Shown: positions 6,734 to 24,583 of the stretch, in pieces | How positions within the stretch are numbered: the first letter of the stretch is position 1 | How the letters are laid out: each line of letters opens with the position of its first letter | Assembly (NCBI GenBank): GCA_965214565.1 | Contig: OZ243951.1 | Location: 1,017 to 65,016, forward strand | Length of the DNA stretch: 64,000 nucleotides | Direction: 5' to 3' | Origin: Candidatus Aldehydirespiratoraceae bacterium | GTDB taxonomy: Bacteria > Actinomycetota > Acidimicrobiia > Acidimicrobiales > Aldehydirespiratoraceae | The notes under the pieces: generated by a model | Told to the model about the DNA's origin: nothing | The model's database searches: none | What the model saw: the letters and a program-made list of their open reading frames with translations, nothing else | Made by a program: the position numbers and the translations under genes

Positions 6734-6734
6734 G

Positions 6735-7742
6735 TCAGTTCTCGCTCAGTACGCGTCCGAGACGCCGGCTGACCACCGCCACAGCGGACAGCGCCTGCTC
6801 GTAGTCCATACGCGTCGGTCCCAGCACACCGATCATCCCTGTCGTCTCCCCCTCGACCGAATACGGCGCAACGACCAGCGAACATTCGGCCAGAGGCTCG
6901 ACGCCGGTCTCCCCGCCGATGGCGACTCGCATGCCGCGGTCGAGCACATCGCGGATCAACGACACGACCACGATCTGCTGTTCGAGGATGGAGAGCACGT
7001 CGCGGATCTGTTCGACCGCCTCGAACGCGGCCGCAACGCGGGAGACCCCGCCGACGACGATCTCTGCGGTGTGGGCCGCGGCCCGCAGCGCCTCGACGGC
7101 CGCGCTCAGCAGCGGATCGTCGTCGAGTGCCTCGGGTGTCATCTCTATCAGGGACTTGCCCACGACTGTCTCGGCCAGTCGCCGGTTGGCGTCTTGCACA
7201 ATCTGTGGGGTGAGCTCGGTGGCGACCTCGATGGTGCGCTTCTCGATCACCCCGTTTGACATGACCGCAACCACCATCACCACATGCGAGGAGAGGTCGA
7301 CCAGCTGTGTCGAGCGCACGCGGGCGATGTCGACATTGGGGCCCACCACCACAGCGGCGCAGTCCGTGAGCGAGATGAGCAGGTCGGAGGTGCGGGCCAG
7401 AACAGATTCGAGTTCACCGTGGGCATCGGCGAAGAACTGGCGGACCATCCCGCGGTCAGCCCCTACCAGCGAGGGTTCACGTCTACGGAGGGTGTCGACG
7501 AAGAATCGGTAGCCCTTGTCGGTCGGTATCCGCCCCGCACTCGTGTGGGGCTGGGTGAGGTACCCCTGCTCTTCGAGCACTGCCATGTCGTGCCGCACCG
7601 TCGCGGGCGACACGGCGACGCCGGGAGCGTTGGATATCCGCCCCGAACCCACCGGTTGTGCCGTTTCGATGTACTGCTGGACAACGGCTGAGAGGATCGC
7701 TGCCTTGCGGTTGTCGAACACCATGCGCAAATCGTCGACCAT
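6735..7742 (-). CDS. hrcA: heat-inducible transcription repressor HrcA
   Basis: N-terminal winged HTH (RKAAILSAVVQQYIETAQPVGS), HrcA-typical length, and a position directly upstream of dnaJ. Confidence 0.92.
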   Translation of the reverse strand: MVDDLRMVFDNRKAAILSAVVQQYIETAQPVGSGRISNAPGVAVSPATVRHDMAVLEEQGYLTQPHTSAGRIPTDKGYRFFVDTLRRREPSLVGADRGMVRQFFADAHGELESVLARTSDLLISLTDCAAVVVGPNVDIARVRSTQLVDLSSHVVMVVAVMSNGVIEKRTIEVATELTPQIVQDANRRLAETVVGKSLIEMTPEALDDDPLLSAAVEALRAAAHTAEIVVGGVSRVAAAFEAVEQIRDVLSILEQQIVVVSLIRDVLDRGMRVAIGGETGVEPLAECSLVVAPYSVEGETTGMIGVLGPTRMDYEQALSAVAVVSRRLGRVLSEN

Positions 7743-7847: not shown

Positions 7848-10800
7848 CTAGTCGTTGTCTTTGATGGTGCCGGTGGCGTAGGTGAAGTTGAAGATGGTGG
7901 TGAAGGTGCTCTCGTAGGCGTACATTCTGATTGTCTCGTCACCTTCAACTGTGTTGTCGTCGATGATCGGCACAACGATCTCGACTTGGGTTTCTCCTGG
8001 GTTGATCGTGAATGTCCGGTAGGGGATGGTGAAGTCTTGGTTGTATTTGGCGGTGATGTCGAACGCGCCGTAGCCGAGTTTGATTTCTTGGTCGCTGGCT
8101 CTTGAGAGCGTCGCGACGAAACGCAGCCCTTGGGGGTCGCCTTCAGAGGCCGAAGCGTCGGCCACGGTCAGGGTTATCGGGCCTGACTGGGCTGGGGCGC
8201 CGTTGGACGTGTCGCCGTCGGATGTGTCGGTGGTGTCGGCGGCTGGGGGATCGTCGTCGTCGGAGATCGTGACCGTGGCGGCACCGTTGTTCGACGACAC
8301 GGTGTAGCCGTTGCCAGAGTTGATGGTGGCGGTGACCGTCCCGTCGGGTTCGTCGGTGCTGTCGTCGTTAGTCGCGATGATGAGGGTGTAGGTGCCTGAG
8401 GTGGGGATGGTGACGGTCTGGGTGCCGGTCGACGCGAAATCACCGCTCTGGGTGATCTTGACGGTCACGTCGAGAGCAGCGGAGGGCGCGGGGTCGGCGG
8501 TGATCGTGAACGTTGCGTCGTCGCCTTCGGTGACGTCAGCGCTGGCAGTGATGCTGATCTCGGGGACGTCGTTGTCGGCGACTGCGACGGTCGCCGTGTT
8601 CTGTGTGGATGACACGGTGTAGCCGGCACCGGTGTTGATGGTGGCGGTGACCGTCCCGTCGGGTTCGTCGGTGCTGTCGTCGCCGGTGGCGACGGTGAGG
8701 GTGTAGGTGCCTGAGGTGGGGATGGTGACGGTCTGGGTGCCGGTGGACGTGAACGCGCCGGTTTGGGTGATCTTGACGGCCACGCTGAGTGCTGTGTGCG
8801 GTGCAGGATCCGCAGTGATCGTGAACGTGGCGTCTTCGCCTTCGGTGACGTCTGCGCCGGCAGTGATGACTATTTCGGGGACATCGTCGTCTGACACGGC
8901 GACGGTCGCCGCGCCCTGTGTGGACGACACCGTGTAGCCGGAACCAATGTTGATGGCGGCAGCAACCGTCCCGTCAGGCTCGTCGACGCTGTCGTCGGTG
9001 GTGGCCACGGTCAGCGTGTAGCTGCCTGTTGTGGGGATGGTGACGGTCTGGGTGCCGGTGGACGTGAACGCGCCGGTTTGGGTGATCTCAATGGTGACGT
9101 CGAGATCGGCTGTGGGTGCGGGGGCAGCGGTGATCGTGTACGTGGCGTCGCCGCCTTCGGTCACATCTGTGCCTGCGGTAATGCTGATTTCGGGTTCGAC
9201 GGGCGGTGGGGCCGGTTTGGCGGTTTGGGCTTGTTCGATGCATTCCAAAGCCTCCCGGAACGGCCGCCATCCCGACCAGCGGGTTTCGCTTTGGCTTGCC
9301 TCGGCCGCGGTGAACGGTTTGAGTTGGGTGTCGGCAATGTCGCCGAACGCGATGAGCACTCGACGCCAGTTCTTGCCGTAGCCCGGAGCGCGGTGCTTGT
9401 TGAGGTCGTAGTATCTGCGGGCGAGTTTCAGCGTGTCGTCAGGAACACATTCGGGTGGCACAGCGGGCGGGTCGCTGCTGGTTTCATCCTCACCGGAGAG
9501 GTCGACGGTCGTGGTGGCGGCGAGGCTATCGAGGTACACGGCGGTTCCGCTGTCGGTGTCATATCCAGGGGTGACAGTGACAGTGACCGTGACGGGTCCG
9601 GCGATGCCGTGATCGAGCGTGTGGCTGGTCGTGGCGATGCCGTCGAACACGCCGGCGGACTGTGCGGTTCCGTCGGCGGCTTCGGCGCTGTAGGCCACGA
9701 GGTACTTGTCAGCGTCCGCTACCGCATCCCAGGAAACGTCGACGCTGGTACCGCCGCCGGTTGCGAGCGTGAGGTTCGCGACGACCGCCGCCGGTTCCGG
9801 CGGCGCCTCGGCGGGCTGTGGGACATCCCGGGACGGGCTATTCTGCGGTGTGTGCTGGTTCGTGTACTGACGGCGCAAAAACGGACAGTCGGAGGGCCAA
9901 TGGAACCGGCCGCTGGAGACGTAATGGGTTTGTAGATTCAAGGTGTCCGCAGTGACGACCGGGGCGTTCGGGTTGCCCCACTCGCGCATATGCCATGTGT
10001 ACGGACCGCCGGGGGTCTGCTTAGAAAAGTACACCAGCCGATAAAACTTGGTGGAATCCAGGTCGCGGTACTGGCCGATCTCGAACTCCTTAGGATAGTG
10101 GCGGAACACCTCGCCGAGGCTGAACGCCCGCATCTTGTCCACCGTCGCCCGCCGGAACCCACCACCAGTCCCGGAATGCACCACGTCCGCGCACTGGGTG
10201 CCCTCAACGTGCAGACTGCGGGTGTTGTGCACCCAGATAACCCGATAACACTTCCACGAAATCCGTGTCTGCGTGTGCCGGTCACCACCGTAGCCACCGT
10301 CCCAACAACCCGCAGCAGTCGGCTCGCCGTCATGGAACGTGAACGTCAACGACTGTTGTGGCGTGCCGTTCCGCGTGAACGAGATCCCCGTGAACGTCAA
10401 CGGGTCATACCCGGCGATCTGAGTCACGTTGATCGTCACCGTCACATCACTCGCAGGTTGTGACGACAGGCGCACGAAATAGTCCAGCACCTCCCCCGGG
10501 GTGATATCAGGCGCAGGACCCAACCCCGGCGTCGACGTCAACGTGTTCGGGCGGAAAATCCCCCACCCGCGATTAGCCCGCTTATGCGCGTTGTACGCAG
10601 CCTCGTCATAGGTACGGCGATACTCGAACACCTCCAACTCCGGCGCGTCGGTCACCAACACCGACACAGTGCCCAGGCTGGAGCTGCTGTAACCGCCGCC
10701 GGACGCGGTCTGCGTCAAATTGAACCTCCGGTTGCGATTATCGCTGGGCTCGTCGACTGCGGTGACGGTAACCTGCTGTGGTTCGGTGTAGTTCGACGCC

Positions 10801-13800
10801 GTGAACGTCAGAGTCGCCGGACTGATCGTCGCCGCCCCCGAACCCACCGACTCGATCACCGTGAACGTCGACGGATCAAACACCGCCCGGCCCGCCGCGG
10901 TGCCGATTGTGACCGTCGTGGAGCCCCCCGACGGGGCGGTGGTCAACCGCACGCAGTAAGTGGTCTTGCCGCCGTTCTCGGTGATCCTGAGACTCGACAC
11001 GCTCAACACGGTGCTCTGCGCCGAGCAGGCCGAGGCGTCGTCGTCGTCGATGGTCAGATCCACCTCCGAGGACGCCGAGACGACCATCGCGCCGCCGCCG
11101 GTCACCACCGTCCCCGAACCCGTGCCCGTCACCACGTTCAACGTCGCGGTGATCTCCTCGTCGGAGGTATCGCCGTCGTCGCCAGCTGCGGTGGCGATCG
11201 GTGTGAGCGTCACCGTCGCGGTCTGCACGGTGTTGGAGTCCGAGCCGGTGAACGTCACCCGCGCCGTCGTCGAAGTCGCGTTGGCGAGCGCCACACCAGT
11301 GCCCGACGCGGTGACCGCGAAGTCCGGGGTGGCGTGGCCGGGCAGCCGGGCGCCGGTGCCCGAAGCCAGCGTGATCGTCGCCACCACCGACTCGCCCGAG
11401 ATCAGCGGGCGGCCCAACGACACCGTCAGCGTCGCGGTGTCAGAAGCGTCCTGCTCGCTCATGGCCGTGTCCGATGCCGTCAGCGTCACCTCGGTTGCCT
11501 CGTCGTCGGTGATCCGCACCTTGTCGGATCCGTTGGTGCCCGAAACGGTGTATGAGTCGGTGCTCGAGCAGCCAGCGGTGCTCGACGGCACCGCGGTGAC
11601 GGTGATGACGCTGTCCAAATCATCCGCAGCGGTGTCGGTCCACGCCACGTCGATCGACCCGGTCTGCACGCCGGCTTGGAAGCTGACGGTTTTGATGCCC
11701 TCGTCGGCTGCGGCGACCCGGTCAGTGTCGCCCGACTCTTCGACGCGCACGCATACCGTCAGAGCGGTCGCGGGCTGGGCGTCCAATGTCAGCGGGAACG
11801 AAACGGTGGCGTCGGCCTCGGACTTTTCGACCTCGTCGTCGTCGTTGCGGTTCTCGCCCTCGCCGGTCATCAGCCGCACTGAAACCTCAGGTCCCGTCGC
11901 GGAGGGGTCGATCTTGAACACCGGCGACATCGCCAACATCCGCAGCTCGGTGGTGTTTACCGTGTTTGCCGTGTGGTCGAGCGGCGTGTTGCCCAACGTA
12001 TCCATGCTTCCGAATCTGGGATTGCTGTCACCGAGTGTGTGGCCGCTCACCTCTACGCCGGCGTCGCTGCTGCCTGTCCAATAGATCGACATTTGCGCCG
12101 TGGCCGCTTCGTTGGTGGCGTGGCTTCTGTTGTTGGTGCCGGTGTCCCAGGAGGCGTCGTAGAAATCGAAATAGTTGTCGGCCACTTTGTCTGTCGACGG
12201 CGCAGCGAGCCAATAGATCTTGGTGCCGCTGTCCGAATCGCTGGTAGATCTATCGGTGTAGCCGCCTGCGTTGGAGTTCAGCGCCGGGTCCCACATGGCG
12301 GTGTTCTCGCGTGCATCCACGGTGGCGGTGCTGGCGATCACCGACACCAGCCCCGAGTAGGGCAACAGGGCGGCGTGGCCGTGCTCGGCGACCACCAGCT
12401 GGGCCCAGTCGTTGTAGGCGTCGATGTCGGTGGAGACGGCGGTGCGTCTCTGCGAAGTGATGAAGATCAGCCGGAACTCGTCGCCCGCGGACAAACCCGA
12501 CGGCGCCAACGCCCAGTCGGCTGCCACCTCAATATCGCCGGTGTCGTCGTCGACGAGTACGACGTTGATCGGGCCGCCGGTCTGCTCACCGACGTTGATG
12601 CCGCCGCTGGCGGTCGCGCCCGACCCGAAATCGACGATCACATACGGTTGGGTGCGGACATCATTATCAACCGGCGTCAACCGCAGCGTCGCCGTCGTCG
12701 CGCCCGCGGTGAACACCACCGCCGGATTCTGCGCCGAGTGCGGCCCCGACGTGTCCAACGCGACGCCGGTCTGCGTCGTCGGTGCCAACCCGAAGGTGTA
12801 ATCGGCAGTGACGGCCGCTCCGGTCACAGTCAAAGGCACCGTAAGCGTCTCAGAGCCGCTCAGCGGCCCGTCCAGCCTGAGGGTGATGGTGCGGTAGCCG
12901 GTGCTGTTGCCGGCGCCCTCCACCGCGTTGCCGTCGGCGTCGCCGTCAGAACCCAACATGGCCACGGCGACCGCCGAGGCGTCGTTATCGTTGACCCGCA
13001 CCTCAGCAGACGCAGCAGACGAGTCGATCCTGTAGTTGTCGCTGTTTTGCAGGGTAATGGTGATCGGCCCCGACGTCTCGACGATGAAATCCTCAACAGT
13101 CGGCACTGTGAACGTGGCCGAGCTCTGCCCCGCGGGCAGGGTGCGGGTGCGGTTCCCCTGCTGGCCCGCAGCAACGAAATCGGCGCCCGACGCGTCGGCG
13201 ATGCCCACGTTGACGGTGAGGTTGCGGTCTGGCGCGGTGCTGGCGGTGACGGTGAACTCTGCCGCGGTGCCCTCGGTGACCGCCGCGCCCGGCGTGATGC
13301 TCAGCGTCACGTCCTCGTCGTCGACGGTCGCCGCGACGCTGCCGGTTACCGACCCGTAATCGGCGCCCGACGACGAATGCGACAAAGTCACCGAATCATC
13401 GGTCAGATCAGTGTCATGCACGCCGCGCACCGTGACCTTGCGGCCGATATACCAGTTCGAAGCATCGAACTGCACCGAAGCCTGGTCGCCGTTCGTGCTG
13501 TCGTCGGCGTCGAGCGTCAACGTCGCCGATGTCTGGCCCGACACCGTCACCGTCACCGTCACCGTGCCCGACGGTTCCGTGGCGAGCCGCAGCCGATACG
13601 CAGCTGTGCCGCCCTCGTCCACCTCAACAGTGGACGGTACGACCAGACCCGGCGCCGTGCGGTCCTGATCCGCGATGTACAGCGTCGTTCGGTCAGGGGT
13701 TGCCGCGGTCGCCCGCGGCGTCTCACTGCTCGCGATCCTCACGACGATCGTCTCATCGGCTTCCTGCATGCTGTCAGCAATAATGGGAATGCTGATGGTG

Positions 13801-16800
13801 TGCGTGCCCGACGCGTTCCCCGAAGGGATCGTCACACTCGTCGACGGGGCGGTGTAGTCGCTGCCGTCAGTGGCGGTCCCCCCAAACGCCAGAGTCAAGT
13901 CGATTTGCTGCTCGGTTTGCTGGTTCAGCGTGAGATTCACATCGAAGGTGCCGCTGTCCTCAAGCACCCAATACTCCGGTTGCTCAAAACCGATCTCGAC
14001 GGCGTCATCGTCGATGATCGTCACAATCGTGACACCACGGGCCCGCAAATAGTCAGGCGAGGCAACGAGACCCACACGAAACGACTCCGAATCCTCGAAC
14101 ACCCCGTCCTCACGGGTCGCTACGTCAAAAGCCACCGACGTCTGCCCCGCGGGGATCATCACCGACGCCTCGCCCGCGGTGAAATCCTGCCCCGCGGTCG
14201 CACCGCCGCCCTCCTCGACGATGTAGGTGAGCGTCAGATCCGCGGTCGGCGCAGGACTGGCCATCAACGTCAACCTGACCGTCTCGCCCTCATTAGCCGA
14301 ACTATTTCCTCTAGTAAAGGCCACCTCCGGCATATCAGCCGACGCCACGGTCTTGACAATCTCCGACACCGCGTAGAACCGGTTCTCGCTGGCGGCCGCC
14401 TCAGTGCCAGACGACAAAGACTGCGACGCGCTGCCGCTGCCGACCCGCGCGCCTGGACCGTAAGCCGGCGTCGCGGTGCCCAGCGGGTTGGAGCTGGTGG
14501 TGCAGTTGTTGTTCATCCCCGTCCACACCTTCGCCCCGTCACCCACACTGCCGTCCTCGTGGCGCAACCGGGTGGCATCCGCAGACGACCACCGGCCGGT
14601 CCACGCCTGATTGCACAACCGCCAATAGCTCGACGACACCTGCTCGCCGCCCGTCCCCAGCCAATACAACACTGTCCCCGAGTCCCTCGCCCTCGTCGTG
14701 CCGTCGGCAAAGCCGCCCGAGCCGCCATTGGCCGACGTGTCCCAGATGCCGACGTGGTTGCGGCCGTCCACGGTCGCAGTCGACACGAACGCCCTGAAGA
14801 AGCCGACATAAGGCAGCAAATCATCCCCGCCGTTGGCGACCGCCGCAGCGCGCACGAAATGGTCGTAATCCGCGATGTCGGTCGACGTCGCCAGCCCGCC
14901 CTCAGACGTCATGAACATCAACCGGTACTCCGCATTGTTTAACACCGCAGGACGGAAAGCCGTGCCCGGCGGCAGCACGATGTCGCCCGTCTCGTCGTCC
15001 ACCAACACCACGCCGATCGGGCCGCCGGTCGGAGTGTCCAAAGTGACACCACCGGAGCCGCTGGGCGTGCCGTAATCGACGATCACATACGGCTGCGTGC
15101 GGTCCGAGTTGTTCACCGGCATCAAACGCAATGTCGCGGTCTGCGCCCCCGCCGCGAACACCACCGCCGGGTTCTGCGCGCTGTTCGAGCCGGATGTGTT
15201 CAGCGACACGCCCGTCTGCGTGCTCGGCTGCAACGCGAACGTGTAATCAGTCGCCACAGTCGCGCCGACGACTGTCAGCGGCACCGTCACCTGTTCCGAG
15301 CCGGTCAACGCCCGGCCCAGAGTGAGCGTGATGGTCCGGTAGCCGGTGGTGCCAGGGCCGCCCTCGACGGCGTTACCGTCGCTGTCGCCGTCAGAAGCAG
15401 ACATCGTGACCGCGACCGGCGGCGTGTCGTCGTCGGTGATCGTCACGGTGGTGGTCGCCGGCATGCCCACCGTGTAGCCGGTGCCGCTCGCCAGTGTCAT
15501 GGTGAAGGTCTCGTCGCCCTCCACCGTGCTGTCGTCGGTGATGTTGACGCTGAAGGTGTGAGACGTCATGGCGGCGGGGAACGTGAACGTTGTCGGCGGC
15601 GCGGTGTAGTCCGACGCCTCCGTCGCGGTCTCCGCCTGCGAGTCGAGGTTCACCGTCAACGCCGACGACGGCGCGCTGCTCGCGTTCACCGTCACATCAA
15701 CGCTGCCGCCGTCCTCCGCTGCGCTGTACGCCGCCGAAGCAAACGTCAGCTCCGGCGTCGCGGCGGCCTCGACTTTGAACACCGGCGACATGGCCAGCAT
15801 CGGCAACGAATCATCCGACATCGCAGATGTGTCAGACAGCGGATTGCCAAGCGAAACACGAGCAACCGACGGCATAGTCGCGCCAAGCCGACGCGTCATA
15901 TTTGGGTCTTTCCTCCCGTCGTGGATGTGGCTGCCAGTCCAGAACCCTGCCGTAACGGTACGCGCAGCACCCGACTCGACAGTGTCGGCGCCGGACTGGT
16001 CCGCGCCGCCGTCCCAGGAACCATCGAAGAAATCGAAATAGTTGTCCGCGACCTTGTCCGACGACGGCTCAGCCAGCCAGTACACCTTCACCCCGCTGCT
16101 CGACGCGTTCGCCGAGCCGTCAGCCCACGCGCTTCCCGTGTGCATGCCAGCATTGACACGGGCATCGACTGTTGTGGTGCTGCCCATCACCCGCACCAGA
16201 CCCGCGTAAGGCTTGAGGCCAGCGTGACCGCCCGCGGCGACCACGCCTTGGGCCCACTCGTTGTACACGTCAATATCGGTCGACTCCGCAGTCCGAGTCT
16301 GCGACGTGATGAACATCAACCGAAACTCATCACCCCCCGACAACCCCGACGGCAACAACGGCCAATCAGCAGCAACCTCAAAATCGCCCGTCTCGTCGTC
16401 CACCAGCACCACACCCACCGGGTCGCCCGACACGGCACCCAGCGCCGCACCCGACGCGCTCGGCGCCCGCGAACCAGTGCCGTAGTCGACGATCACATAC
16501 GGCTGTGTACGGACGTTGTTATCGACCGGCATCAAACGCAAAGTCGCGGTCTGCGCTCCAGATGCGAACACCACCGCCGGGTTCTGCGCGCTGTTCGTGC
16601 CCGATGTGTTTAGCGACACGCCGGTGTTCGAGCCGCTCAGCCCGAAGGTGTAGTCATTGCTCGCGCCGACCGTCGCACCGGTCACAGTCAACGGCACCGT
16701 AACCGACTCACTACCGGTGAGCACCCGACCCAACGTCAAGGTGATGGTCCGATACCCCGTCGCGCCGCTGGCGCCTTCCACAGCGTTGCCGTTGGCATCA

Positions 16801-19800
16801 CCATCAGACCCCGCCATCGACACGGTGACAGGTCCGGGGGCTTTGATCGTGAAATCCGCGGACAGCGACGCTCCGTAAGGAACCGCCTTGGTCGCGGACA
16901 GCGACCGGCGCAACAGCCGACGGCCGACGTTGAGGGTGACTGGGTCATCGGCGGTGATCGCCGACCCCGAATACGACAGCACCACCTCCAAAGAACGATG
17001 CTTGGGCTGGCCGTGTACGTCGCTCATGGCCGCACCGAGCTCGGCACTGTTGACCGTCAACCCTGTCGGCGCCCCGGTGAACGTCAACAACGCCAGACCC
17101 GAAGCCGTCAACGATCCGCCGCTTCGCAGATTCCCGGCGCCTCGGTCGCCGCCTTCGGGTCCTAAGCCGTCGCCGTCGCCGACGCCGAAGAACGTGACAT
17201 GCTCAGGCGTCAAGGTGAGCGTGACAGTGCCGCCGCTGGCGAACGCGGACGACTGCACCTGCGCGGGTGTGACGCCCAGCGTCGGGGTCGTGTCGGTGTC
17301 AGCCACCCGCACCGTCACATTCCCACTCAACGCGTTGAAATCGTTGTCCGACGACGACGTGCTGTGCGAAATCGTCACCATCCGCGCCCCGCCGGTGTTG
17401 ATGGTGTTGTCGTCCACACCCGAAACCGTGACCTCTTGTCCGGTGTCCCAGTTCGTTGTCGTGAACGTCAACGAAGCCGGGTTGACCGCCGCGCCCACTG
17501 CCGCGGTGATCGCCACCGTCACATCCGCCGACGGCGCCTTGTTCAACTTCACCTCGTAGGTGTCGGTGTGGCCCGATTCCTCGCTCACCGCCACCCCCTC
17601 GCCGACGTCGAACACCAAGGCAGCCGACGGCACCACCGTGACATCCACCTGCGGCCCGACCATGTTCACCGGATACCTCGAACTGGCAGTACCCGCCGAG
17701 CTCGACACAGAATGGGTGACACCCCCGGCGCCTCCGCTGCCCCCGTTGATCGTGACGGTTTGTGCAGACATCCAGTTGCCGGCGTTGAACGACACGGTCA
17801 CGGGACTGACAGTCAGACTGCCGGAACTGTTGACAGCAGTGACATGCAACGTCACCGCGCCGCCCGGGTTGCTCGCCAACCGGATCCCGTACTCGGCGGT
17901 GTCGCCCTCATTCACCGACACCGCAACCGGCACAACCACAATCTTGTGACCGGCGTCGACGGTGGTCGCGGTCACGCTGTTGATCGGAATCTGGTGATAC
18001 GGGTTGCCAGCATCCGATACCTCCGCCGCATGGGAGACGGTGACAGTCTCCGCGGCGGAGTCGCCGTCGTTGACGGCGCGCAGCGTCACCGTCTGCGCCG
18101 AGCTCCAGTTCCCGGTATTGCCGTGAGTGAAAGTCAGCATCGACTGGTCGCCGGCCATGTCGCTGTCGGTGTCCACCGCCACCGCCGTCGCGTCGCCCGA
18201 GGACACCGTCACCACCACATTCGCGCCCGGATCAGAGTCGAGCACCACCGTGTAGGACATCTCCGCATCAGTGGCGTGAAGCTCAGTCAAAGTGACAGCA
18301 GACCCAGAAAGCGTCACACCAGCGGTGCCGTCGTCGTCGTCGGTGAGGGTGATCGTGGTCTCGGCGGTGCTGCCTGCCCGGGCGTCGACGGCGAGGGTGC
18401 CGTCGAGCTGCACTTTGAACGTTTCGGTGCTCTCGGCGGTGCCGTCATCCACCAGGTCGATGGTGAGGGTCTTGGTCGTGTCGCCGGTGGCGAATTCGAG
18501 GTAGCCGGACTGGGCGGTGTAGTCGGTCGGGTGGGCTGCGGTGCCATCCGCGGTGGTCCAGTAGATCGACAGGGGCACCGCTGTGGTCCCGGTCTTGGTG
18601 ACGGTGACGCCGATTGTGCCTGCGTCCTCGGCAGCGACGGCCGTCGCCGAGGCGAACGCGACGTTGGGCAGGTCGGCTTTGTCGGTGATGATGCCGATGC
18701 CTGTGCTCTTGCCGGCGGCGAGGCCCGGCGCGTCGGTGCCCGTCGGGGTGCCGAGAGTGACCCGGAAGTAGTGGTCGCCCTCATAGGTGCTGTCGTCGGT
18801 GGTCGCCACGGCGATGGTCGCGGTGGTGGCGCCCTGGGCGATGGTGACGCTGCCGGCGGTGTCGGCGAAATCAGAGGCGTCGGCGACGATGTGAGCGGGG
18901 TCGGTGGCGATGCCAAGGCCGTGGGCGAAGGTGTAGGGCACGGTGATGCCCCCGGTGGGGGCGGCCTCAGACATCGTCACGGTGAAGCTGACCGCGCTGC
19001 CTTCGGCTGCGCGAGAACGCGGCGTGATCTCCACAGCGCCGCCGACCACCTCGAACACAGACGTGGACAGCGCGTACAGCGGGCGCATCTCGGTGGCGGG
19101 CTCTGCGTCGGTGCAGGCCGGCGTCCGGGCGCGTATCGGCCCCAGCGGCGAGAACCTGCTGGAGTCGTTGCCGTCGAGCTTGCCGACGTGCACATTCGGT
19201 TCGCCGACCTGGCCCCGGTTGTGACCGCCAGTGCCGCCGGAGCAGAAGGCGTGGTTCGTTCGGTGGCCCTCCTCGGTACCGCCGGTCCAGTAACCGTCGG
19301 TATCGACAGTCGCGGCGGTGCCGTCGGCGTGGCGCGGCGACTCGCTGTCCCACGTACCGTCGATGAAATCGGGGCTGGCGTTGTCGGCGACCTTGTCGCC
19401 GCCCACCCAGTAGATCGGGTCGTTCGGCTGAACTCCCTCGTCGATCCGGTACATGTTGAACTGCGCCCGGTCACGGGCGCCGTAGGTTCCGGTTCCCCCC
19501 CCGTCGCCGAGGGTCGTGACGAGCCCGAAGAACGACTCGGCGTGCGGGACGAGCTCGGGGACGCCGCCGCCTTTGAGCTGGGCGCCGGTGATCTCGGCGC
19601 GCACGAAATCGTCGTAGACGGACCCTTGACGGCTGGTGGCGGCGGTCTCGCCGTTGGTGACATACAGCAGACGGAACGTGTCACCGACACCGACGCCCGA
19701 CGGCAGCAGCGGCCAGTCGAGGGGCACCTCGACGGTCTCTCCTGTGCTCGGCGGGGCCGCGTCGTCGTCTGCGATGCCGTACCAGGCTTGCGCGTCGGCC

Positions 19801-22508
19801 TGCGCTGCGGTGACGCCTCCGCCGAGGTTCGTTTGGGGGTTGAGATGTCTCTGCGGGGAGAACACTTTGCCGTCGTCGGTATAGTTGCGCACCGACTGGA
19901 GACCGCGGGGGAAGCTGATGTGGAACTCCTCGTCGGAGACGTCGCCGTCGTCGAAACCGTCTCGGGTTTTCAGCACGATCGTCGCGGTCTGGGCGCCGGC
20001 GCCAGCGAACTCCAGCCAGCGGAACCCGACATGCGCGGGCGTGTACCGGTTCACCGCCTCCACCGACACGCCCGTGCCGACAGCGGCCATCTCGAAATCG
20101 TTGTGATGGACCGGCCACGCCACGTTCGCGCTGTAACGCGGCCCACGAACCGAGCTGACCACATCGCACGCCACGTAATCCGCCCACCGCTCCAGCGACT
20201 CATCGCTCCAGTCTTGGAGGTTCAGGTCGCATTTCACATCAGGGTTCTGGCGATGCCCGGTCGCCTCCAGATACAACGGCACCCGCACCCACTCGTTCGC
20301 TGTGAGGGCGCGACCCAAGCTGATCGTCAGAGAACGGTCCACCCGAGTGGCGTCCCCCTCCACCATCACCTCAGAAATCTGGGTGCCCGAGGGGCTGGTA
20401 CGCACCCCTGTCCCGGCCATCGACACCTCGGTCGGGTCGTCGTCCACCAGCGTTAGGGGGTGGCTCACGTCGCCGATGCTGGCGTAGTTGCCGGCGCCGG
20501 TGACGGCGTGCGTGATCGTCAGCCCGATATCAGCCGCATCAGCATCGTTGTCCTCCGCCGACACCGTCACCGTCTGCGGCATGGGCCAATTCGACGGTGT
20601 GAACGTCAAAGAGGCGCCCGTCGTGATCGTCGCTTTGGTGGTGTCGCTGCTCGACACCGCCACGGTCACATTCGAGGTCGGCGCCGCGGAAAGCCGCACC
20701 TCATAGGAGTAGTCGCCGCCTACGGTGACGACCTTCTCCTCGATGTCGTATAACACGATACTGCCTTGCGTCCTCTCGACCACCGGCACGTTCTCGACGA
20801 TGTCTCCCTCCAAAAGCCGACCCCCGCCGTTGTCGATGACCGCGAGGCCTGCCTCCGCCTCGTTGAGCGTGATGCGATACAAGCGCTCAGCGAGACGCAC
20901 CGGCCCACAACCATCGCCAGAGCACACACCACCCGCCAAGTTCGTTGTGATGTGGTTCCCCTTCCACGGATCCGACGTCGGATAAGTCCTGACCACCAGA
21001 TTGTTGGTCGCGGTGTCACCGTCGTCAGTAGCCGCGGTCACCACCACCGTCGCCTCAGCCGCGGACGGTCCCGTGAACCTCAACTCGCCCGTCGCGCCAT
21101 CGGCCGAATCCGCATACGCCACGCCTTGCGGGCTGCCGTCGAGCGACAGCGAGAAATGCGTGCCCAGCGTCGCGCCCTGAAACGCGAGCGGCACCGTCAG
21201 CATCTCCCCCGCTGCCAGCCCACGACCCAACGTCACCCGGAACTTCGCGGTGTCCGTGCTGCTGCCCTCGGTCGCGACCTGGTCCGTCGTCGCGGCGTGA
21301 TGCAACTCGATCTCGGTCACCTCGTCGTCGCCGGTCACCGTCAACGGCACATCCGGCAACACGATGCCCGTGTATTCCGTCGGCACGGTGCTCGTGTTCG
21401 GGCACTTCACCGTCTGGGGTCCCAAGCCGACATCGATGCGGCAGTTGGTCGTGTCGTAGTAGTCCTCGTCGTACTGATAGACCGTGAACACAAGATTGCC
21501 CGACAGCTCCCCGCCAGGAGTGTCCACCGCATTGTTGAACGCCGCAATTGACACCTCGAACTCCGACACCCACTCATCTTGCTCAACCGTGCCGCTTCCG
21601 TCGACGTCGAGTCCGGTGCCGTCGGGGATGTTGACTCCGTCCAGGTTGATCGAGAACGCGTGACGAGGCGTCGTGGGACCCGCCCCCGCGTGCTGGGCGA
21701 AACCGCCCCTGATGTTCGCGATCGGCGTTTCAGTCCCCAGCTTGCCCATCGTCGTCGTATCAACGAGGCCCACCACCACGATGCTCTGAGTCGGACGGCT
21801 CTCATAGGGAATGGTGACCGTGATGGTGTCGGACACGTCGCGGTTGTCGTTGTTGGTGAGCCGCTCCATCATCGTCGTCGAGCCACCGCTCACAGTGATC
21901 GACGCCCCCGTCCCGGTCAGCGTCGTGTCCGACACATCGGTGATCGTCACCGTCCAATCACCCAAAACCGTGCCGCCCTCACAATCAGCGGTCGTACACA
22001 GCTGTACCCCGAACGTCTCATCATCAGAATCGCCGTCGGAATGGGCCTCCACCTCGAAACGCAGACGCTCGCGCAAAGAGTTCACAGACGCCCGGCGCCC
22101 CTCACCCGCCGCGACCTCAACCAGACCATCGCGACGCCAATGAACCTTGAACGTGATATCCGACGGTTCGGCCGTGTACCCCGTCAAAGGCTTGAAAAAC
22201 ACGTAATACGCCGGACGATCCGGCAAATTCGAAATCTCGAACTGGCGAGTCTGACCCTCCTCGATCACCGTGCGATGCAAAAACGCCCGGCTATACGCCG
22301 ACACGCCCGACGAGCCCGCCGACTGCGCCGCAGCCTCAGAAACCCCCAGACCCGCACCCGACAACACCGGAACCGGTGCCACCACCAACAACGACGCCAA
22401 CAGCGCCACCGCCAAGCCGCACACCAACCCCCGACGGCCAACCCGCGACCGAACGAGAAAGGCTAAGCCCCCCCCCCCCCCCCGCAGGAGAAGACCCAAA
22501 CACACCAC
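7848..22508 (-). CDS. giant secreted Calx-beta / beta-sandwich repeat protein (4,886 aa), adhesin- or surface-layer-like
   Basis: One uninterrupted 14,661-nt ORF. The N-terminus has a basic stretch (RSRVGRRG), a hydrophobic core (LAVALLASLLVVAPVPVL) and AAAQ. Many Calx-beta-type motifs are present, for example ITDDSTVEGDETFTMTL, IIDDNTVEGDETIRMYA, LVDDGTAESTETFKVQL and TTDDSTYEGDHYFRVTL. Other beta-sandwich repeats carry an LTFT..NW...QTVTV signature. Composition is acidic and rich in T/A/V/G. I saw no LPXTG, SLH, RTX or C-terminal TM segment. Confidence 0.9.
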   Translation of the reverse strand: MVCLGLLLRGGGGGLAFLVRSRVGRRGLVCGLAVALLASLLVVAPVPVLSGAGLGVSEAAAQSAGSSGVSAYSRAFLHRTVIEEGQTRQFEISNLPDRPAYYVFFKPLTGYTAEPSDITFKVHWRRDGLVEVAAGEGRRASVNSLRERLRFEVEAHSDGDSDDETFGVQLCTTADCEGGTVLGDWTVTITDVSDTTLTGTGASITVSGGSTTMMERLTNNDNRDVSDTITVTIPYESRPTQSIVVVGLVDTTTMGKLGTETPIANIRGGFAQHAGAGPTTPRHAFSINLDGVNIPDGTGLDVDGSGTVEQDEWVSEFEVSIAAFNNAVDTPGGELSGNLVFTVYQYDEDYYDTTNCRIDVGLGPQTVKCPNTSTVPTEYTGIVLPDVPLTVTGDDEVTEIELHHAATTDQVATEGSSTDTAKFRVTLGRGLAAGEMLTVPLAFQGATLGTHFSLSLDGSPQGVAYADSADGATGELRFTGPSAAEATVVVTAATDDGDTATNNLVVRTYPTSDPWKGNHITTNLAGGVCSGDGCGPVRLAERLYRITLNEAEAGLAVIDNGGGRLLEGDIVENVPVVERTQGSIVLYDIEEKVVTVGGDYSYEVRLSAAPTSNVTVAVSSSDTTKATITTGASLTFTPSNWPMPQTVTVSAEDNDADAADIGLTITHAVTGAGNYASIGDVSHPLTLVDDDPTEVSMAGTGVRTSPSGTQISEVMVEGDATRVDRSLTISLGRALTANEWVRVPLYLEATGHRQNPDVKCDLNLQDWSDESLERWADYVACDVVSSVRGPRYSANVAWPVHHNDFEMAAVGTGVSVEAVNRYTPAHVGFRWLEFAGAGAQTATIVLKTRDGFDDGDVSDEEFHISFPRGLQSVRNYTDDGKVFSPQRHLNPQTNLGGGVTAAQADAQAWYGIADDDAAPPSTGETVEVPLDWPLLPSGVGVGDTFRLLYVTNGETAATSRQGSVYDDFVRAEITGAQLKGGGVPELVPHAESFFGLVTTLGDGGGTGTYGARDRAQFNMYRIDEGVQPNDPIYWVGGDKVADNASPDFIDGTWDSESPRHADGTAATVDTDGYWTGGTEEGHRTNHAFCSGGTGGHNRGQVGEPNVHVGKLDGNDSSRFSPLGPIRARTPACTDAEPATEMRPLYALSTSVFEVVGGAVEITPRSRAAEGSAVSFTVTMSEAAPTGGITVPYTFAHGLGIATDPAHIVADASDFADTAGSVTIAQGATTATIAVATTDDSTYEGDHYFRVTLGTPTGTDAPGLAAGKSTGIGIITDKADLPNVAFASATAVAAEDAGTIGVTVTKTGTTAVPLSIYWTTADGTAAHPTDYTAQSGYLEFATGDTTKTLTIDLVDDGTAESTETFKVQLDGTLAVDARAGSTAETTITLTDDDDGTAGVTLSGSAVTLTELHATDAEMSYTVVLDSDPGANVVVTVSSGDATAVAVDTDSDMAGDQSMLTFTHGNTGNWSSAQTVTLRAVNDGDSAAETVTVSHAAEVSDAGNPYHQIPINSVTATTVDAGHKIVVVPVAVSVNEGDTAEYGIRLASNPGGAVTLHVTAVNSSGSLTVSPVTVSFNAGNWMSAQTVTINGGSGGAGGVTHSVSSSAGTASSRYPVNMVGPQVDVTVVPSAALVFDVGEGVAVSEESGHTDTYEVKLNKAPSADVTVAITAAVGAAVNPASLTFTTTNWDTGQEVTVSGVDDNTINTGGARMVTISHSTSSSDNDFNALSGNVTVRVADTDTTPTLGVTPAQVQSSAFASGGTVTLTLTPEHVTFFGVGDGDGLGPEGGDRGAGNLRSGGSLTASGLALLTFTGAPTGLTVNSAELGAAMSDVHGQPKHRSLEVVLSYSGSAITADDPVTLNVGRRLLRRSLSATKAVPYGASLSADFTIKAPGPVTVSMAGSDGDANGNAVEGASGATGYRTITLTLGRVLTGSESVTVPLTVTGATVGASNDYTFGLSGSNTGVSLNTSGTNSAQNPAVVFASGAQTATLRLMPVDNNVRTQPYVIVDYGTGSRAPSASGAALGAVSGDPVGVVLVDDETGDFEVAADWPLLPSGLSGGDEFRLMFITSQTRTAESTDIDVYNEWAQGVVAAGGHAGLKPYAGLVRVMGSTTTVDARVNAGMHTGSAWADGSANASSSGVKVYWLAEPSSDKVADNYFDFFDGSWDGGADQSGADTVESGAARTVTAGFWTGSHIHDGRKDPNMTRRLGATMPSVARVSLGNPLSDTSAMSDDSLPMLAMSPVFKVEAAATPELTFASAAYSAAEDGGSVDVTVNASSAPSSALTVNLDSQAETATEASDYTAPPTTFTFPAAMTSHTFSVNITDDSTVEGDETFTMTLASGTGYTVGMPATTTVTITDDDTPPVAVTMSASDGDSDGNAVEGGPGTTGYRTITLTLGRALTGSEQVTVPLTVVGATVATDYTFALQPSTQTGVSLNTSGSNSAQNPAVVFAAGAQTATLRLMPVNNSDRTQPYVIVDYGTPSGSGGVTLDTPTGGPIGVVLVDDETGDIVLPPGTAFRPAVLNNAEYRLMFMTSEGGLATSTDIADYDHFVRAAAVANGGDDLLPYVGFFRAFVSTATVDGRNHVGIWDTSANGGSGGFADGTTRARDSGTVLYWLGTGGEQVSSSYWRLCNQAWTGRWSSADATRLRHEDGSVGDGAKVWTGMNNNCTTSSNPLGTATPAYGPGARVGSGSASQSLSSGTEAAASENRFYAVSEIVKTVASADMPEVAFTRGNSSANEGETVRLTLMASPAPTADLTLTYIVEEGGGATAGQDFTAGEASVMIPAGQTSVAFDVATREDGVFEDSESFRVGLVASPDYLRARGVTIVTIIDDDAVEIGFEQPEYWVLEDSGTFDVNLTLNQQTEQQIDLTLAFGGTATDGSDYTAPSTSVTIPSGNASGTHTISIPIIADSMQEADETIVVRIASSETPRATAATPDRTTLYIADQDRTAPGLVVPSTVEVDEGGTAAYRLRLATEPSGTVTVTVTVSGQTSATLTLDADDSTNGDQASVQFDASNWYIGRKVTVRGVHDTDLTDDSVTLSHSSSGADYGSVTGSVAATVDDEDVTLSITPGAAVTEGTAAEFTVTASTAPDRNLTVNVGIADASGADFVAAGQQGNRTRTLPAGQSSATFTVPTVEDFIVETSGPITITLQNSDNYRIDSSAASAEVRVNDNDASAVAVAMLGSDGDADGNAVEGAGNSTGYRTITLRLDGPLSGSETLTVPLTVTGAAVTADYTFGLAPTTQTGVALDTSGPHSAQNPAVVFTAGATTATLRLTPVDNDVRTQPYVIVDFGSGATASGGINVGEQTGGPINVVLVDDDTGDIEVAADWALAPSGLSAGDEFRLIFITSQRRTAVSTDIDAYNDWAQLVVAEHGHAALLPYSGLVSVIASTATVDARENTAMWDPALNSNAGGYTDRSTSDSDSGTKIYWLAAPSTDKVADNYFDFYDASWDTGTNNRSHATNEAATAQMSIYWTGSSDAGVEVSGHTLGDSNPRFGSMDTLGNTPLDHTANTVNTTELRMLAMSPVFKIDPSATGPEVSVRLMTGEGENRNDDDEVEKSEADATVSFPLTLDAQPATALTVCVRVEESGDTDRVAAADEGIKTVSFQAGVQTGSIDVAWTDTAADDLDSVITVTAVPSSTAGCSSTDSYTVSGTNGSDKVRITDDEATEVTLTASDTAMSEQDASDTATLTVSLGRPLISGESVVATITLASGTGARLPGHATPDFAVTASGTGVALANATSTTARVTFTGSDSNTVQTATVTLTPIATAAGDDGDTSDEEITATLNVVTGTGSGTVVTGGGAMVVSASSEVDLTIDDDDASACSAQSTVLSVSSLRITENGGKTTYCVRLTTAPSGGSTTVTIGTAAGRAVFDPSTFTVIESVGSGAATISPATLTFTASNYTEPQQVTVTAVDEPSDNRNRRFNLTQTASGGGYSSSSLGTVSVLVTDAPELEVFEYRRTYDEAAYNAHKRANRGWGIFRPNTLTSTPGLGPAPDITPGEVLDYFVRLSSQPASDVTVTINVTQIAGYDPLTFTGISFTRNGTPQQSLTFTFHDGEPTAAGCWDGGYGGDRHTQTRISWKCYRVIWVHNTRSLHVEGTQCADVVHSGTGGGFRRATVDKMRAFSLGEVFRHYPKEFEIGQYRDLDSTKFYRLVYFSKQTPGGPYTWHMREWGNPNAPVVTADTLNLQTHYVSSGRFHWPSDCPFLRRQYTNQHTPQNSPSRDVPQPAEAPPEPAAVVANLTLATGGGTSVDVSWDAVADADKYLVAYSAEAADGTAQSAGVFDGIATTSHTLDHGIAGPVTVTVTVTPGYDTDSGTAVYLDSLAATTTVDLSGEDETSSDPPAVPPECVPDDTLKLARRYYDLNKHRAPGYGKNWRRVLIAFGDIADTQLKPFTAAEASQSETRWSGWRPFREALECIEQAQTAKPAPPPVEPEISITAGTDVTEGGDATYTITAAPAPTADLDVTIEITQTGAFTSTGTQTVTIPTTGSYTLTVATTDDSVDEPDGTVAAAINIGSGYTVSSTQGAATVAVSDDDVPEIVITAGADVTEGEDATFTITADPAPHTALSVAVKITQTGAFTSTGTQTVTIPTSGTYTLTVATGDDSTDEPDGTVTATINTGAGYTVSSTQNTATVAVADNDVPEISITASADVTEGDDATFTITADPAPSAALDVTVKITQSGDFASTGTQTVTIPTSGTYTLIIATNDDSTDEPDGTVTATINSGNGYTVSSNNGAATVTISDDDDPPAADTTDTSDGDTSNGAPAQSGPITLTVADASASEGDPQGLRFVATLSRASDQEIKLGYGAFDITAKYNQDFTIPYRTFTINPGETQVEIVVPIIDDNTVEGDETIRMYAYESTFTTIFNFTYATGTIKDND
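8250..9194 (-). repeat. three tandem 315-bp (105-aa) Calx-beta-like repeats
   Basis: Units span 9194-8880, 8879-8565 and 8564-8250. Each begins PEI(S/V)ITA..DVTEG.DATFTITA.PAP and ends ATV.VSDDDV. The exact 315-nt period is confirmed by the antisense ORFs starting at 8392 and 8707, which are nearly identical; a third antisense ORF at 9031 repeats the same peptide from its fifth residue, 9 nt in from the extrapolated unit position 9022. Confidence 0.9.
11907..12971 (-). repeat. internal module D (355 aa)
   Basis: VAVAMLGSDGDADGNAVEG...YRTITLRLDG...RTQPYVIVDFG...DEFRLIFITS...IYWLAAPSTDKVADNYFDFYDASWD...IYWTGSSD...MLAMSPVFKID. Confidence 0.85.
14352..15416 (-). repeat. internal module C (355 aa)
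   Basis: VAVTMSASDGDSDGNAVEG...YRTITLTLGR...RTQPYVIVDYG...EYRLMFMTS...VLYWLGTGGEQVSSSYW...VWTGMNNN...FYAVSEIVK. Its DNA is very similar to module B over the first half. Confidence 0.85.
15768..16829 (-). repeat. internal module B (354 aa)
   Basis: VTVSMAGSDGDANGNAVEG...YRTITLTLGR...RTQPYVIVDYG...DEFRLMFITS...VYWLAEPSSDKVADNYFDFFDGSWD...FWTGS...MLAMSPVFKVE. Confidence 0.85.
19044..20429 (-). repeat. internal module A (divergent, 462 aa): beta-sandwich plus endostatin/DUF1554-like unit
   Basis: Starts EVSMAGTG. Contains WPLLPSGVGVGDTFRLLYVTN...YWVGGDKVADNASPDFIDGTWD...YWTGGTEEG. Ends LYALSTSVFEVV. Confidence 0.7.
22468..22483 (-). repeat. homopolymeric tract, C16 on the plus strand (G16 in the gene sense)
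   Basis: Counted directly: ggctaag + 16 c + gcaggag. As annotated it lies in codons 9-14 of the giant ORF (R-G-G-G-G-G). Confidence 0.95.
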
Positions 22509-22682: not shown

Positions 22683-24467
22683 TCAATCGTGAAGCTGCAA
22701 AGCTGAAATGAACGCTTCTTGGGGGATGTCGACCCGACCAATCGACTTCATCCGCTTCTTGCCACGCTTCTGCTTTGCCAGCAGCTTGTTCTTGCGCGTG
22801 ACGTCACCGCCGTAGAGCTTGGCGGTGACGTCCTTGCGAAACGCCCGCACCGTGCAGCGGGCGATGATCTTCCCACCGATCGCCGCCTGGATCGGCACCT
22901 CGAACTGCTGGCGCGGGATCAACTCCTTGAGCTTCTCCGCCATCTTCTTGCCGTAACTGTAGGCGTTGTCTCTGTGGACGATGGTGCTGAACGCGTCGAC
23001 AGCCTCCCCGTGCAGCAGCACGTCCACACGCACGAGGCTGTTGACCACGTAACCGTCCGGTTCGTAGTCGAGGCTGGCATAACCCTGCGTGCGGCTCTTG
23101 AGCTGGTCGAAAAAGTCGATGACGACCTCCCCGAGCGGCAGCCGGTAGATGATCTCAACACGTTCGGGCGACAAGTACTCCATCTTCACCATCTCGCCGC
23201 GACGACCCTGGCACAAGTCCATGACCGCCCCCGTGTAGTGCGACGGTGTCAACACGCTCACCTTCAGGTACGGCTCGGCGATGGAACTGATCTCACCGGC
23301 CGGCGGAAGATCCGACGGGTTCGACACGACAACGCTGCTGTTGTCGCTGCGGGTGACGCGGTACTCCACGGACGGCGCGGTCGAGATCAGCGACAGGCTG
23401 AACTCCCGCTCGAGGCGTTCACGCACGATCTCCATGTGAAGCAGGCCCAGGAAGCCGCAACGGAACCCGAATCCCAGAGCGCCCGACGTCTCAGGCTCGT
23501 AGGTGAAGCTCGAATCGTTGAGGCGCAGCTTCTCAAGCGCCTCCCGAAGGTCGGTGAACTCGTCGCCCTCGATCGGATACAACCCGGAGAAGACCATCGG
23601 CTTGGGTTCCGCATAACCGTCTAGGGGCTCAGCAGCCGGGTTCTTGTCGGTGGTCACAGTCTCGCCCGAGCGGGCCTCGCCGACGTCCTTGATCCCCGCT
23701 ATCAGATAACCGGTCTCTCCGGGACCGAGTTCATCTACCGGTTGATTGTCTGGAGTGCGCACGCCGATCTCGTCGGGATCATGGGTTGTCCCCGCATGCA
23801 TGAATCGCAGCTTCGACTTCGACGACATGACACCGTTGACCACACGGACCGACGACACGACGCCCCGGTACTGATCGAAGTGAGAGTCGAAGATCAGGGC
23901 CTGCAACGGGTCGGCCGCGCTGCCCCGGGGGCAGGGTGTGGTCGCCACCACCGCGTCCAGAAGCTCCACCACACCCTCACCGGTCTTCGCGGAGATGTGC
24001 AGGACGTCCTCTGCCGGTATGCCGAGCACCTGCTCGATCTCAGCCGCGTACTTGTCGGGCTCCGCAGCGGGGAGGTCGATCTTGTTGAGGCAGGCGACGA
24101 TCTCCATCTCGTTCTCCATCGCCAGATAACAGTTCGCCAGGGTCTGGGCCTCGATCCCCTGTGCAGCGTCGACCACCAGGATCACGCTCTCACACGCCGC
24201 CAGCGAACGGCTGACCTCGTAACCGAAATCAACATGTCCCGGCGTGTCGATGAGGTTGATGATGTGGTCGCCCCACTCGAGTCGGACCGACTGGAGCTTG
24301 ATGGTTATCCCCCGCTCCCGCTCCAATTCCATGGAGTCGAGGTACTGGGCACGCATGTCCCGGAGGTCAACCGCGCCGGTTAGTTCCAACAGACGGTCGG
24401 CGAGTGTCGACTTGCCATGATCAATGTGGGCGATGATCGACGTGTTGCGTATGCGCTCAAGCTCCAT
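22683..24467 (-). CDS. lepA: translation elongation factor 4 (LepA)
   Basis: [23 protein letters not shown]1 motif, [12 protein letters not shown], and the LepA C-terminal domain. Start set at the internal ATG (24467, MELERIRN...) to match normal LepA N-termini; the ORF extends to 24563. Confidence 0.95.
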
Positions 24468-24583
24468 CTGCCACGAAACGATACCCGCCACAGTTCCAAA
24501 CAGACCCGAACGACCGGTGGTGCGATCCGGTGAGCGGGGCCGATACGCTTGTCGGTCGTTCAACCGATCACCAGCAGGTAACC

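Follow-up and report, generated by a model that had tools for sequence, protein, structure and literature searches.

The 64,000-nt stretch of contig OZ243951.1 analysed here (hereafter the window), which derives from a Candidatus Aldehydirespiratoraceae bacterium and probable sponge symbiont, encodes on its minus strand a giant protein of 4,886 amino acids (aa) in one open reading frame (ORF). Four paralogous modules are contained in this ORF, and the second half of each module is a unit of about 210 aa. Based on a confident structure model of one of them, the units very probably have the endostatin variant of the C-type-lectin-like fold, of which endostatin is a recognised compact member. Judged by profile searches, they constitute a separate sequence family within this fold, outside PF06482, PF07588 and PF00059 as defined. 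We propose that the units may serve as adhesive heads on a surface-exposed stalk.

An earlier note on this DNA had described the four modules from the sequence, and all four intervals turned out to be in frame with the giant ORF: module A at window positions 19044–20429 (aa 694–1155), module B at 15768–16829 (aa 1894–2247), module C at 14352–15416 (aa 2365–2719) and module D at 11907–12971 (aa 3180–3534). Each consists of what appears to be a divergent Calx-beta-like sandwich, followed by the unit. The motifs quoted in the note were found in all four copies in collinear order, the common elements being FRL(M/I/L)(F/Y)(I/V/M)T, STDI..YN, ST.TVDAR, YWL...KVADNY.DF.DGSW and WTG. Identities to unit B are 57% for unit D, 34% for unit A and 31% for unit C. 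When the whole window was translated in all six frames and searched with a hidden Markov model (HMM) of the family, exactly these four copies came up, with domain E-values of 1e-41 to 9e-59; besides them, nothing scored below E 0.25. The four-copy observation is confirmed as lying far beyond chance. With the family alignment, the boundaries of the units could be refined (Table 1): a unit begins about 20 residues ahead of FRL with the segment VP.DW.L.PSGL..GD and closes with the conserved strand (L/Y)A(L/M/V)S.VFKV, which reads YALSPVF.V in the family alignment.

A homolog search by word index with one unit yielded a single protein, and an exhaustive profile search was needed to reach the family. 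From the 516 full-length domain instances present in the best 150 proteins, 43 diverse sequences were drawn for the alignment designated A3. AlphaFold2 (AF2) prediction with a 5-sequence alignment gave a predicted local distance difference test score (pLDDT) of 39.9, and this model was set aside. Template-free prediction of unit B with A3 reached a pLDDT of 90.7 and a predicted TM-score (pTM) of 0.89, with the five models ranging from 87.9 to 90.7.

When the unit B model was compared to the PDB with Foldseek, ranks 1–5 were all endostatin and were the sole significant matches (1dy1, 1koe, 1dy0 and 1bnl from collagen XVIII and 1dy2 from collagen XV). The E-values range from 7.6e-5 to 8.9e-3, with a probability of 1.00, TMq of 0.53–0.60, TMt of 0.63–0.71, 193–207 aligned columns and 14–16% identity. 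The model features a strand (22–28), two helices (40–54 and 60–65), two strands (102–105 and 113–115), a further helix (118–123) and the final strands (198–201 and 205–207). This order is collinear with the endostatin motifs; compared to endostatin, an N-terminal strand and a longer loop after DARDNT are added. The earlier note had assigned the second halves to the endostatin/C-type-lectin-like fold and had suggested a Foldseek comparison of the predicted module B structure. This assignment is upheld by the template-free model, for which only endostatins are significant in the PDB, and the propeller blade and the jelly roll named there as alternatives are excluded because the only significant structure matches are endostatin. 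Membership in the C-type-lectin-like superfamily follows at the level of the fold, through the endostatin match.

From rank 6 onwards, the PDB matches have E-values of at least 2.7 and TM-scores of at most 0.26, and nearly all of them are C-type lectins (such as langerin, mincle and NKp80); no DUF1554 structure was among the PDB matches. A comparison with the viral structure library BFVD gave non-significant matches only, including DUF1566 and poxvirus C-type-lectin-like proteins. These lectins below endostatin, together with a resemblance of WTGS to the WIGL motif of C-type lectin domains, would fit units that are true Ca2+-dependent carbohydrate-binding C-type lectins. We regard this reading as very unlikely: the scores are poor, PF00059 gave no match, the consensus is devoid of the conserved EPN/QPD plus WND, and the specific match is endostatin, a compact variant without the long-loop Ca/sugar site. 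Diversity-generating retroelement (DGR) variable proteins and formylglycine-generating enzymes (FGE) are generally known to share the same fold superfamily, and the units could in principle be DGR variable domains or FGE-like enzymes. This is extremely improbable, since neither DGR nor FGE structures were among the Foldseek PDB matches, Pfam gave no FGE-sulfatase match, and the family has no conserved catalytic Cys pair. The DGR hypothesis was rejected, as a near-identical pair of template and variable repeats is missing from the window; the window's direct repeats of at least 60 nt include none that are near-identical, only in-frame paralogous segments at 72–86% identity.

At the sequence level, the relation to endostatin is faint. 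Alignment of the family profile with hhalign gave an E-value of 0.0019 against human endostatin (sequence checked against 1BNL), 0.054 against a profile of 113 vertebrate endostatin sequences and, with a wider family alignment, a pairwise E-value of 0.0025 at a probability of 12% against the endostatin profile. The alignments place FRA..ST opposite FRAFLSS, PIYWL opposite PIVNL and WTGS..G opposite WHGS..G, align the alpha-1 helix and, in permissive mode, span the whole domain. The motif-by-motif register proposed in the earlier note is reproduced in this way, although the signal is weak (E 0.0025, probability 12%), and by itself the register would not establish homology.

No match to PF06482 was obtained for the whole protein (E ≤ 1) or for the four units, the 43 members and the family consensus (E ≤ 10). 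PF07588, a search for which the note had suggested, was likewise negative at E ≤ 10 for the whole protein, units, members and consensus, as was PF00059 for the same set. The four units match no Pfam family at E ≤ 10, and PDB sequence and profile searches returned nothing meaningful (the single match was an antibody chain, E 0.51). As a positive control, vertebrate endostatins carry PF06482, and the PF07588 model is active, matching fish endostatins. Some endostatin domains of fish collagen XV/XVIII (P0263, P0268, P0285, P0286, P0302, P0316) match both models, which confirms at the HMM level the endostatin–DUF1554 link that the note had drawn.

From the negative PF07588, PF06482 and PF00059 searches it follows that the units would form a family of their own and not part of DUF1554. 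That they are divergent members of DUF1554/Len (PF07588), an already catalogued domain, could be argued from the motif order, which resembles the description of DUF1554 in the earlier note, from the predicted endostatin fold of the family, and from the double matches of the fish endostatins and the corresponding literature (PMC2387172). We nevertheless consider it quite unlikely, as PF07588 fails throughout the set and the disulfide cysteines ascribed to endostatin and DUF1554 are missing, with 58% of the family members having no Cys at all. Recent transfer from a host to the bacterium was also considered; it is unsupported, with 14–16% identity to endostatin and no HMM-level similarity.

The claim that the disulfide cysteines are missing holds for units B and D (no Cys), but units A and C have two Cys each. 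In the family, 35% of the members have one pair, at positions other than those of endostatin. Most often (in 112 of 516 members) the pair is found at profile columns 70/138, where it takes the place of the serines in 'gST' and 'WTGS'; it probably represents an optional disulfide, unlike both disulfides of endostatin. The Cys pair of unit C, a minor type within the family, sits at columns 110/142 instead. The four units are acidic with an isoelectric point (pI) of 4.3–4.9, and the family median is 4.6.

The spacers between the heads are of the Calx-beta type. Pfam matched the whole giant protein only with Calx-beta (PF03160, E 2.1e-64, six stretches above threshold), NCBIfam gave one Calx-type match alone, and neither database yielded a repeats-in-toxin (RTX) or type I secretion system (T1SS) signal for the protein. 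Profiles iterated on the protein itself located about 19 Calx-beta-like spacer domains. The same internal profiles distinguished a second type of sandwich, and it is this type that makes up the first halves of the modules. These first halves have no Pfam match above threshold, and we read them as divergent Calx-beta-like sandwiches because the first-half family aligned to the Calx-like copies with an hhalign probability of 96.6% and an E-value of 6.6e-10 (alignments deepened with related proteins). The layout given in the earlier note, with heads spaced by Calx-beta domains, is borne out by Pfam, the internal profile map and hhalign.

The family extends far beyond the window. The profile search of 1.84 billion representative proteins yielded 5,189 clusters at E ≤ 1e-3, of which 2,831 were at E ≤ 1e-10. 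In the best 150 proteins, the domain (E) alternates with Calx-like domains (c) as EcEcEc... with up to 14 copies, stands in pure tandem (EEEEEEEE) or occurs in mixed arrangements. The first-half-type sandwich precedes the domain in just 51 of 504 instances, so the module of the window is one arrangement among several. The core is fixed, while insertions and deletions concentrate in three loops: one follows DARDNT, one lies between W-D and WTG, and one separates WTGS..DG from the last strand. Strongly conserved acidic/polar motifs, DARDNT and KVADDY.DFYDG.WD, are present nearly family-wide. Source names of the members read 'hypothetical protein' only, because Pfam and NCBIfam models miss the family; for ten related proteins of 476–750 aa, Pfam was empty except for one sub-threshold Calx-beta match.

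Several distant members on JGI metagenome contigs (L031, L032, L039, L046 and others) are small proteins in which a single domain stands between a signal peptide and a PEP-CTERM exosortase sorting tail. All four PEP-CTERM proteins scanned had a tail above the NCBIfam cut-off, and three also exceeded that of Pfam; no Pfam or NCBIfam model matched the globular part. As signal peptide and PEP-CTERM tail are paired in these proteins, they give independent evidence that the domain would work outside the cell, and the PEP-CTERM members argue for its location at the cell surface. They also bear on the reading that the units, having no specific ligand, belong structurally to the stalk, where they would bind Ca2+ or serve to stiffen or space the Calx-beta chain. 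The units are strongly acidic, nearly all members have the Asp-rich DARDNT and ADDY.DFYDG.WD, the units are embedded among domains of the Ca2+-binding Calx-beta type, and tandem arrays exist, all of which would suit such elements. In the PEP-CTERM proteins, however, the domain is the sole globular part of a small surface protein and no stalk is needed. The loops vary in length and sequence over a fixed core, and domains of this fold superfamily are generally known to bind. We therefore rate a purely structural role as rather unlikely.

A scan of species-representative genomes was made with the four units of the window as query. The close relatives are all metagenome-assembled genomes (MAGs), assigned to Ca. 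Poriferisodalis, Ca. Spongiisociaceae, Ca. Poriferisocius, Ca. Aldehydirespirator, unnamed Acidimicrobiia and Dehalococcoidia. In one Ca. Poriferisodalis sp. (L001), unit B is 96% identical, and the DNA is 88.5% identical over 6.3 kb. The earlier note had called the combination of such heads with Calx-beta rods unfamiliar in actinobacteria; it is not rare, being common in sponge-symbiont-type Acidimicrobiia and Dehalococcoidia MAGs. One contig with a family member carries the label ROBB21-1_SAMN13943213_METAG, which presumably refers to a published sponge-microbiome data set. Poriferisodalaceae and Aldehydirespiratoraceae include sponge-symbiotic lineages in which proteins of the Calx-beta, cadherin and fn3 types are enriched (PMC11706023, PMC12988363). 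A sponge specificity of the whole family is unsupported, as distant PEP-CTERM members are found in many other metagenome contigs.

The ortholog P0010 is collinear with the giant protein and 73% identical. Between the two proteins, identity reaches 92% for unit B, 72% for unit C and 65% for unit D, compared to 31–57% among the paralogs. Since orthologous units are closer than paralogous ones, the four heads predate the split of the two lineages. Judged by these identities, they have kept their positions since before that split and the architecture is stable. In a Dehalococcoidia MAG (L006, Chloroflexota), 3.4 kb of DNA is 68.7% identical to window positions 12136–15434. This identity is unusually high across phyla, and points either to horizontal transfer between symbionts living together or to an error in binning.

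Taken together, we lean towards the following account, which we hold to be somewhat probable. The ORF would encode a giant, acidic fibrillar protein that is secreted by, or exposed on the surface of, a Ca. Poriferisodalis-like bacterium of the Acidimicrobiia. Its stalk would be the chain of about 19 Calx-beta-type beta-sandwiches and would bear an endostatin-fold head at four positions. N- and C-terminal strands pair in C-type-lectin-like domains, and each head would for this reason project sideways off the stalk and not in line with it. The conserved core of the heads would present variable loops, and the heads would probably fasten the bacterium to other surfaces or to matrix components of its sponge host. 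That the heads are adhesive, ligand-binding modules is a claim on which our own judgement is evenly divided. We infer binding because binding is the typical task of domains in the C-type-lectin-like superfamily, and because of the conserved core with variable loops and the precedent of the Leptospira Len proteins. The latter, the sole bacterial endostatin-like proteins characterised so far, are DUF1554 lipoproteins that bind laminin, fibronectin and factor H (PMC2063517, PMC2387172). Heparin binding in the manner of endostatin is unlikely, because the heads are acidic.

Several points weigh against this account. Support for the fold comes from one predicted model, that of unit B, because the sequence-only links to endostatin, at hhalign probabilities of 1–14%, are not significant by database standards. 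The two disulfides of endostatin are absent from the units, and their acidity (pI 4.3–4.9) is unlike the functional features of endostatin. Zn-binding histidines are not apparent, as no His is conserved towards the N-terminus of the consensus, and the C-type lectin Ca/sugar motif (EPN/QPD ... WND) is missing from the consensus of 516 instances. The very strongly conserved acidic/polar residues in DARDNT and KVADDY.DFYDG.WD could mean metal binding or a structural role in place of ligand recognition. Moreover, the sponge association rests on MAG names and two papers, and the JGI scan placed more remote relatives of the family in numerous other metagenomes.

A more far-reaching version is that the heads, through an endostatin-like surface, imitate the matrix of the host or interact with it. 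Sponge symbionts of several phyla would thereby bind basement-membrane-type proteins or integrin-like receptors in order to lodge in the mesohyl or avoid phagocytosis, and the cassette would have spread by horizontal transfer. The identity shared with the Dehalococcoidia MAG supports a transfer of the cassette among symbionts. We regard this version as doubtful. If true, an unrecognised class of 'eukaryote-like' domain would join ankyrin, cadherin, fn3 and Calx-beta as hallmarks of sponge symbiosis.

The giant protein is strongly acidic with a pI of 4.2. Its N-terminus, in which an Arg-rich n-region is followed by about 22 hydrophobic residues and then by ...SEAAAQS, would be a signal peptide. 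The C-terminus, as read from the translation, is a Calx-beta-like domain and an LPXTG-type tail is absent. Three of the four C-terminal Calx-beta-like domains are encoded by tandem 315-nt repeats (family D1, window 8212–9141), which are 74–76% identical. The roughly 340 N-terminal residues after the signal-like segment (aa 60–407, window 21288–22331) have no Pfam match. For aa 3956–4440 (about 480 aa, window 9189–10643), no family was found beyond a weak fn3-like match (E 0.11); this region includes a Trp/Cys-rich part and the segment CVPDDTLKLARRYYDLNKHRAPGYGKNWRR.

The giant gene is flanked by hrcA-dnaJ and lepA (window 5630–7742 and 22683–24563), which is a housekeeping neighbourhood; holA, folP, comEC and comEA are located farther along. 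No secretion or sorting genes were seen adjoining the giant gene. Two ORFs on the opposite strand within it, at 11973–14942 (+, 989 aa) and 17199–20456 (+, 1,085 aa), are taken to be shadow ORFs of a coding region with 65% GC and not genes.

Table 1. Features of the giant protein and their positions in the window, ordered from the N-terminus
Feature	Residues (aa)	Window position	Strand	Basis
Giant ORF, bearer of all listed features		7848..22508	-	translation; collinear ortholog P0010, 73% identical
Signal-peptide-like segment	~1-65	22314..22508	-	read directly from translation
Extra first-half-type sandwich, no predicted endostatin-fold unit after it	408-540	20889..21287	-	internal profile, E 3.1e-47
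Module A first half, large insertion	694-924	19737..20429	-	internal profile matches aa 711-774 and 785-875
Unit A, predicted endostatin fold	925-1160	19029..19736	-	family HMM, domain E 2.6e-48
Best Pfam Calx-beta stretch	1276-1392	18333..18683	-	PF03160; one of ~19 spacers
Module B first half	1894-2039	16392..16829	-	internal profile; hhalign to Calx-like copies
Unit B, predicted endostatin fold, the modelled unit	2040-2250	15759..16391	-	HMM E 1e-56; AF2; Foldseek
Module C first half	2365-2504	14997..15416	-	internal profile; hhalign to Calx-like copies
Unit C, predicted endostatin fold, 2 Cys	2505-2722	14343..14996	-	HMM E 2.5e-41
Module D first half	3180-3322	12543..12971	-	internal profile; hhalign to Calx-like copies
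Unit D, predicted endostatin fold	3323-3537	11898..12542	-	HMM E 9.1e-59
Extra first-half-type sandwich, no predicted endostatin-fold unit after it	3679-3823	11040..11474	-	internal profile, E 2.6e-38
Four C-terminal Calx-beta-like domains	4441-4886	7851..9188	-	internal iterated profile

The endostatin fold itself and the idea of bacterial endostatin-like adhesins are already known. The sequence family is uncatalogued in the copies of Pfam and NCBIfam that were searched, and a literature search found no published description of it. Also uncatalogued are its size, its Cys-poor and acidic character, the multi-head Calx-beta arrays in sponge-symbiont MAGs and the PEP-CTERM single-domain form. 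So far, the endostatin fold has been discussed for the animal collagens XV and XVIII and, by modelling, for the Leptospira Len/DUF1554 adhesins. The present result points to a much larger bacterial branch, with thousands of clusters and up to 14 copies per protein. A model of the family would assign a fold to much unannotated sequence in the giant surface proteins of sponge symbionts and in PEP-CTERM proteins. Comparative genomics has tied Calx-beta-rich 'eukaryote-like' proteins to sponge symbiosis (PMC11706023), and for the adhesive part of such proteins the heads are a concrete candidate open to testing.

Compared to the endostatin domains of collagens XVIII and XV (PF06482), the units share the predicted fold over the whole domain, with about 200 aligned columns, and a collinear core consisting of the hhhVTS/LHLVALNS strand, the alpha-1 helix, FRA..S(T/S), P-I-(Y/V)-x-L, WTGS/WHGS..G and the final hydrophobic strand. 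They differ in their low identity of 14–16%, the negative Pfam HMM, the lack of both disulfides, some 20 additional residues at the N-terminus and a loop after DARDNT that is about 15–20 aa longer. Endostatin is basic and heparin-binding, with N-terminal Zn-binding histidines, whereas the units are acidic (pI about 4.6). Endostatin is a single C-terminal domain released from collagen, while the units are internal and repeated in bacterial giant proteins. With other C-type-lectin-like domains (PF00059, the Link module and the C-terminal domain of Legionella Lcl/DUF1566), the units have the fold superfamily in common; the Foldseek matches are non-significant (E at least 2.4), and the Ca/sugar motif, the canonical disulfides and an HMM match are all absent.

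In its overall build, the giant protein resembles giant adhesins such as those of the RTX type, with a long chain of Ig-like/Calx-beta domains, few globular domains, acidic character and an N-terminal signal. Unlike these, it gave no RTX/T1SS signal with Pfam and NCBIfam, and its C-terminus has no LPXTG-type tail. To our knowledge, a head domain of this type has not been described for giant fibrillar adhesins. The Len/DUF1554 proteins of Leptospira are small lipoproteins, whereas the present family, to which the PF07588 HMM is blind, is Cys-poor, stands in arrays within proteins of 1,000–7,600 aa or in PEP-CTERM proteins, and is found in Acidimicrobiia, Dehalococcoidia and other taxa. Like the Len proteins, its members are bacterial, endostatin-like by prediction, apparently extracellular, present as multiple paralogs and prone to intragenic duplication, and by analogy the Leptospira adhesins would offer the best functional parallel to the heads of the giant protein.

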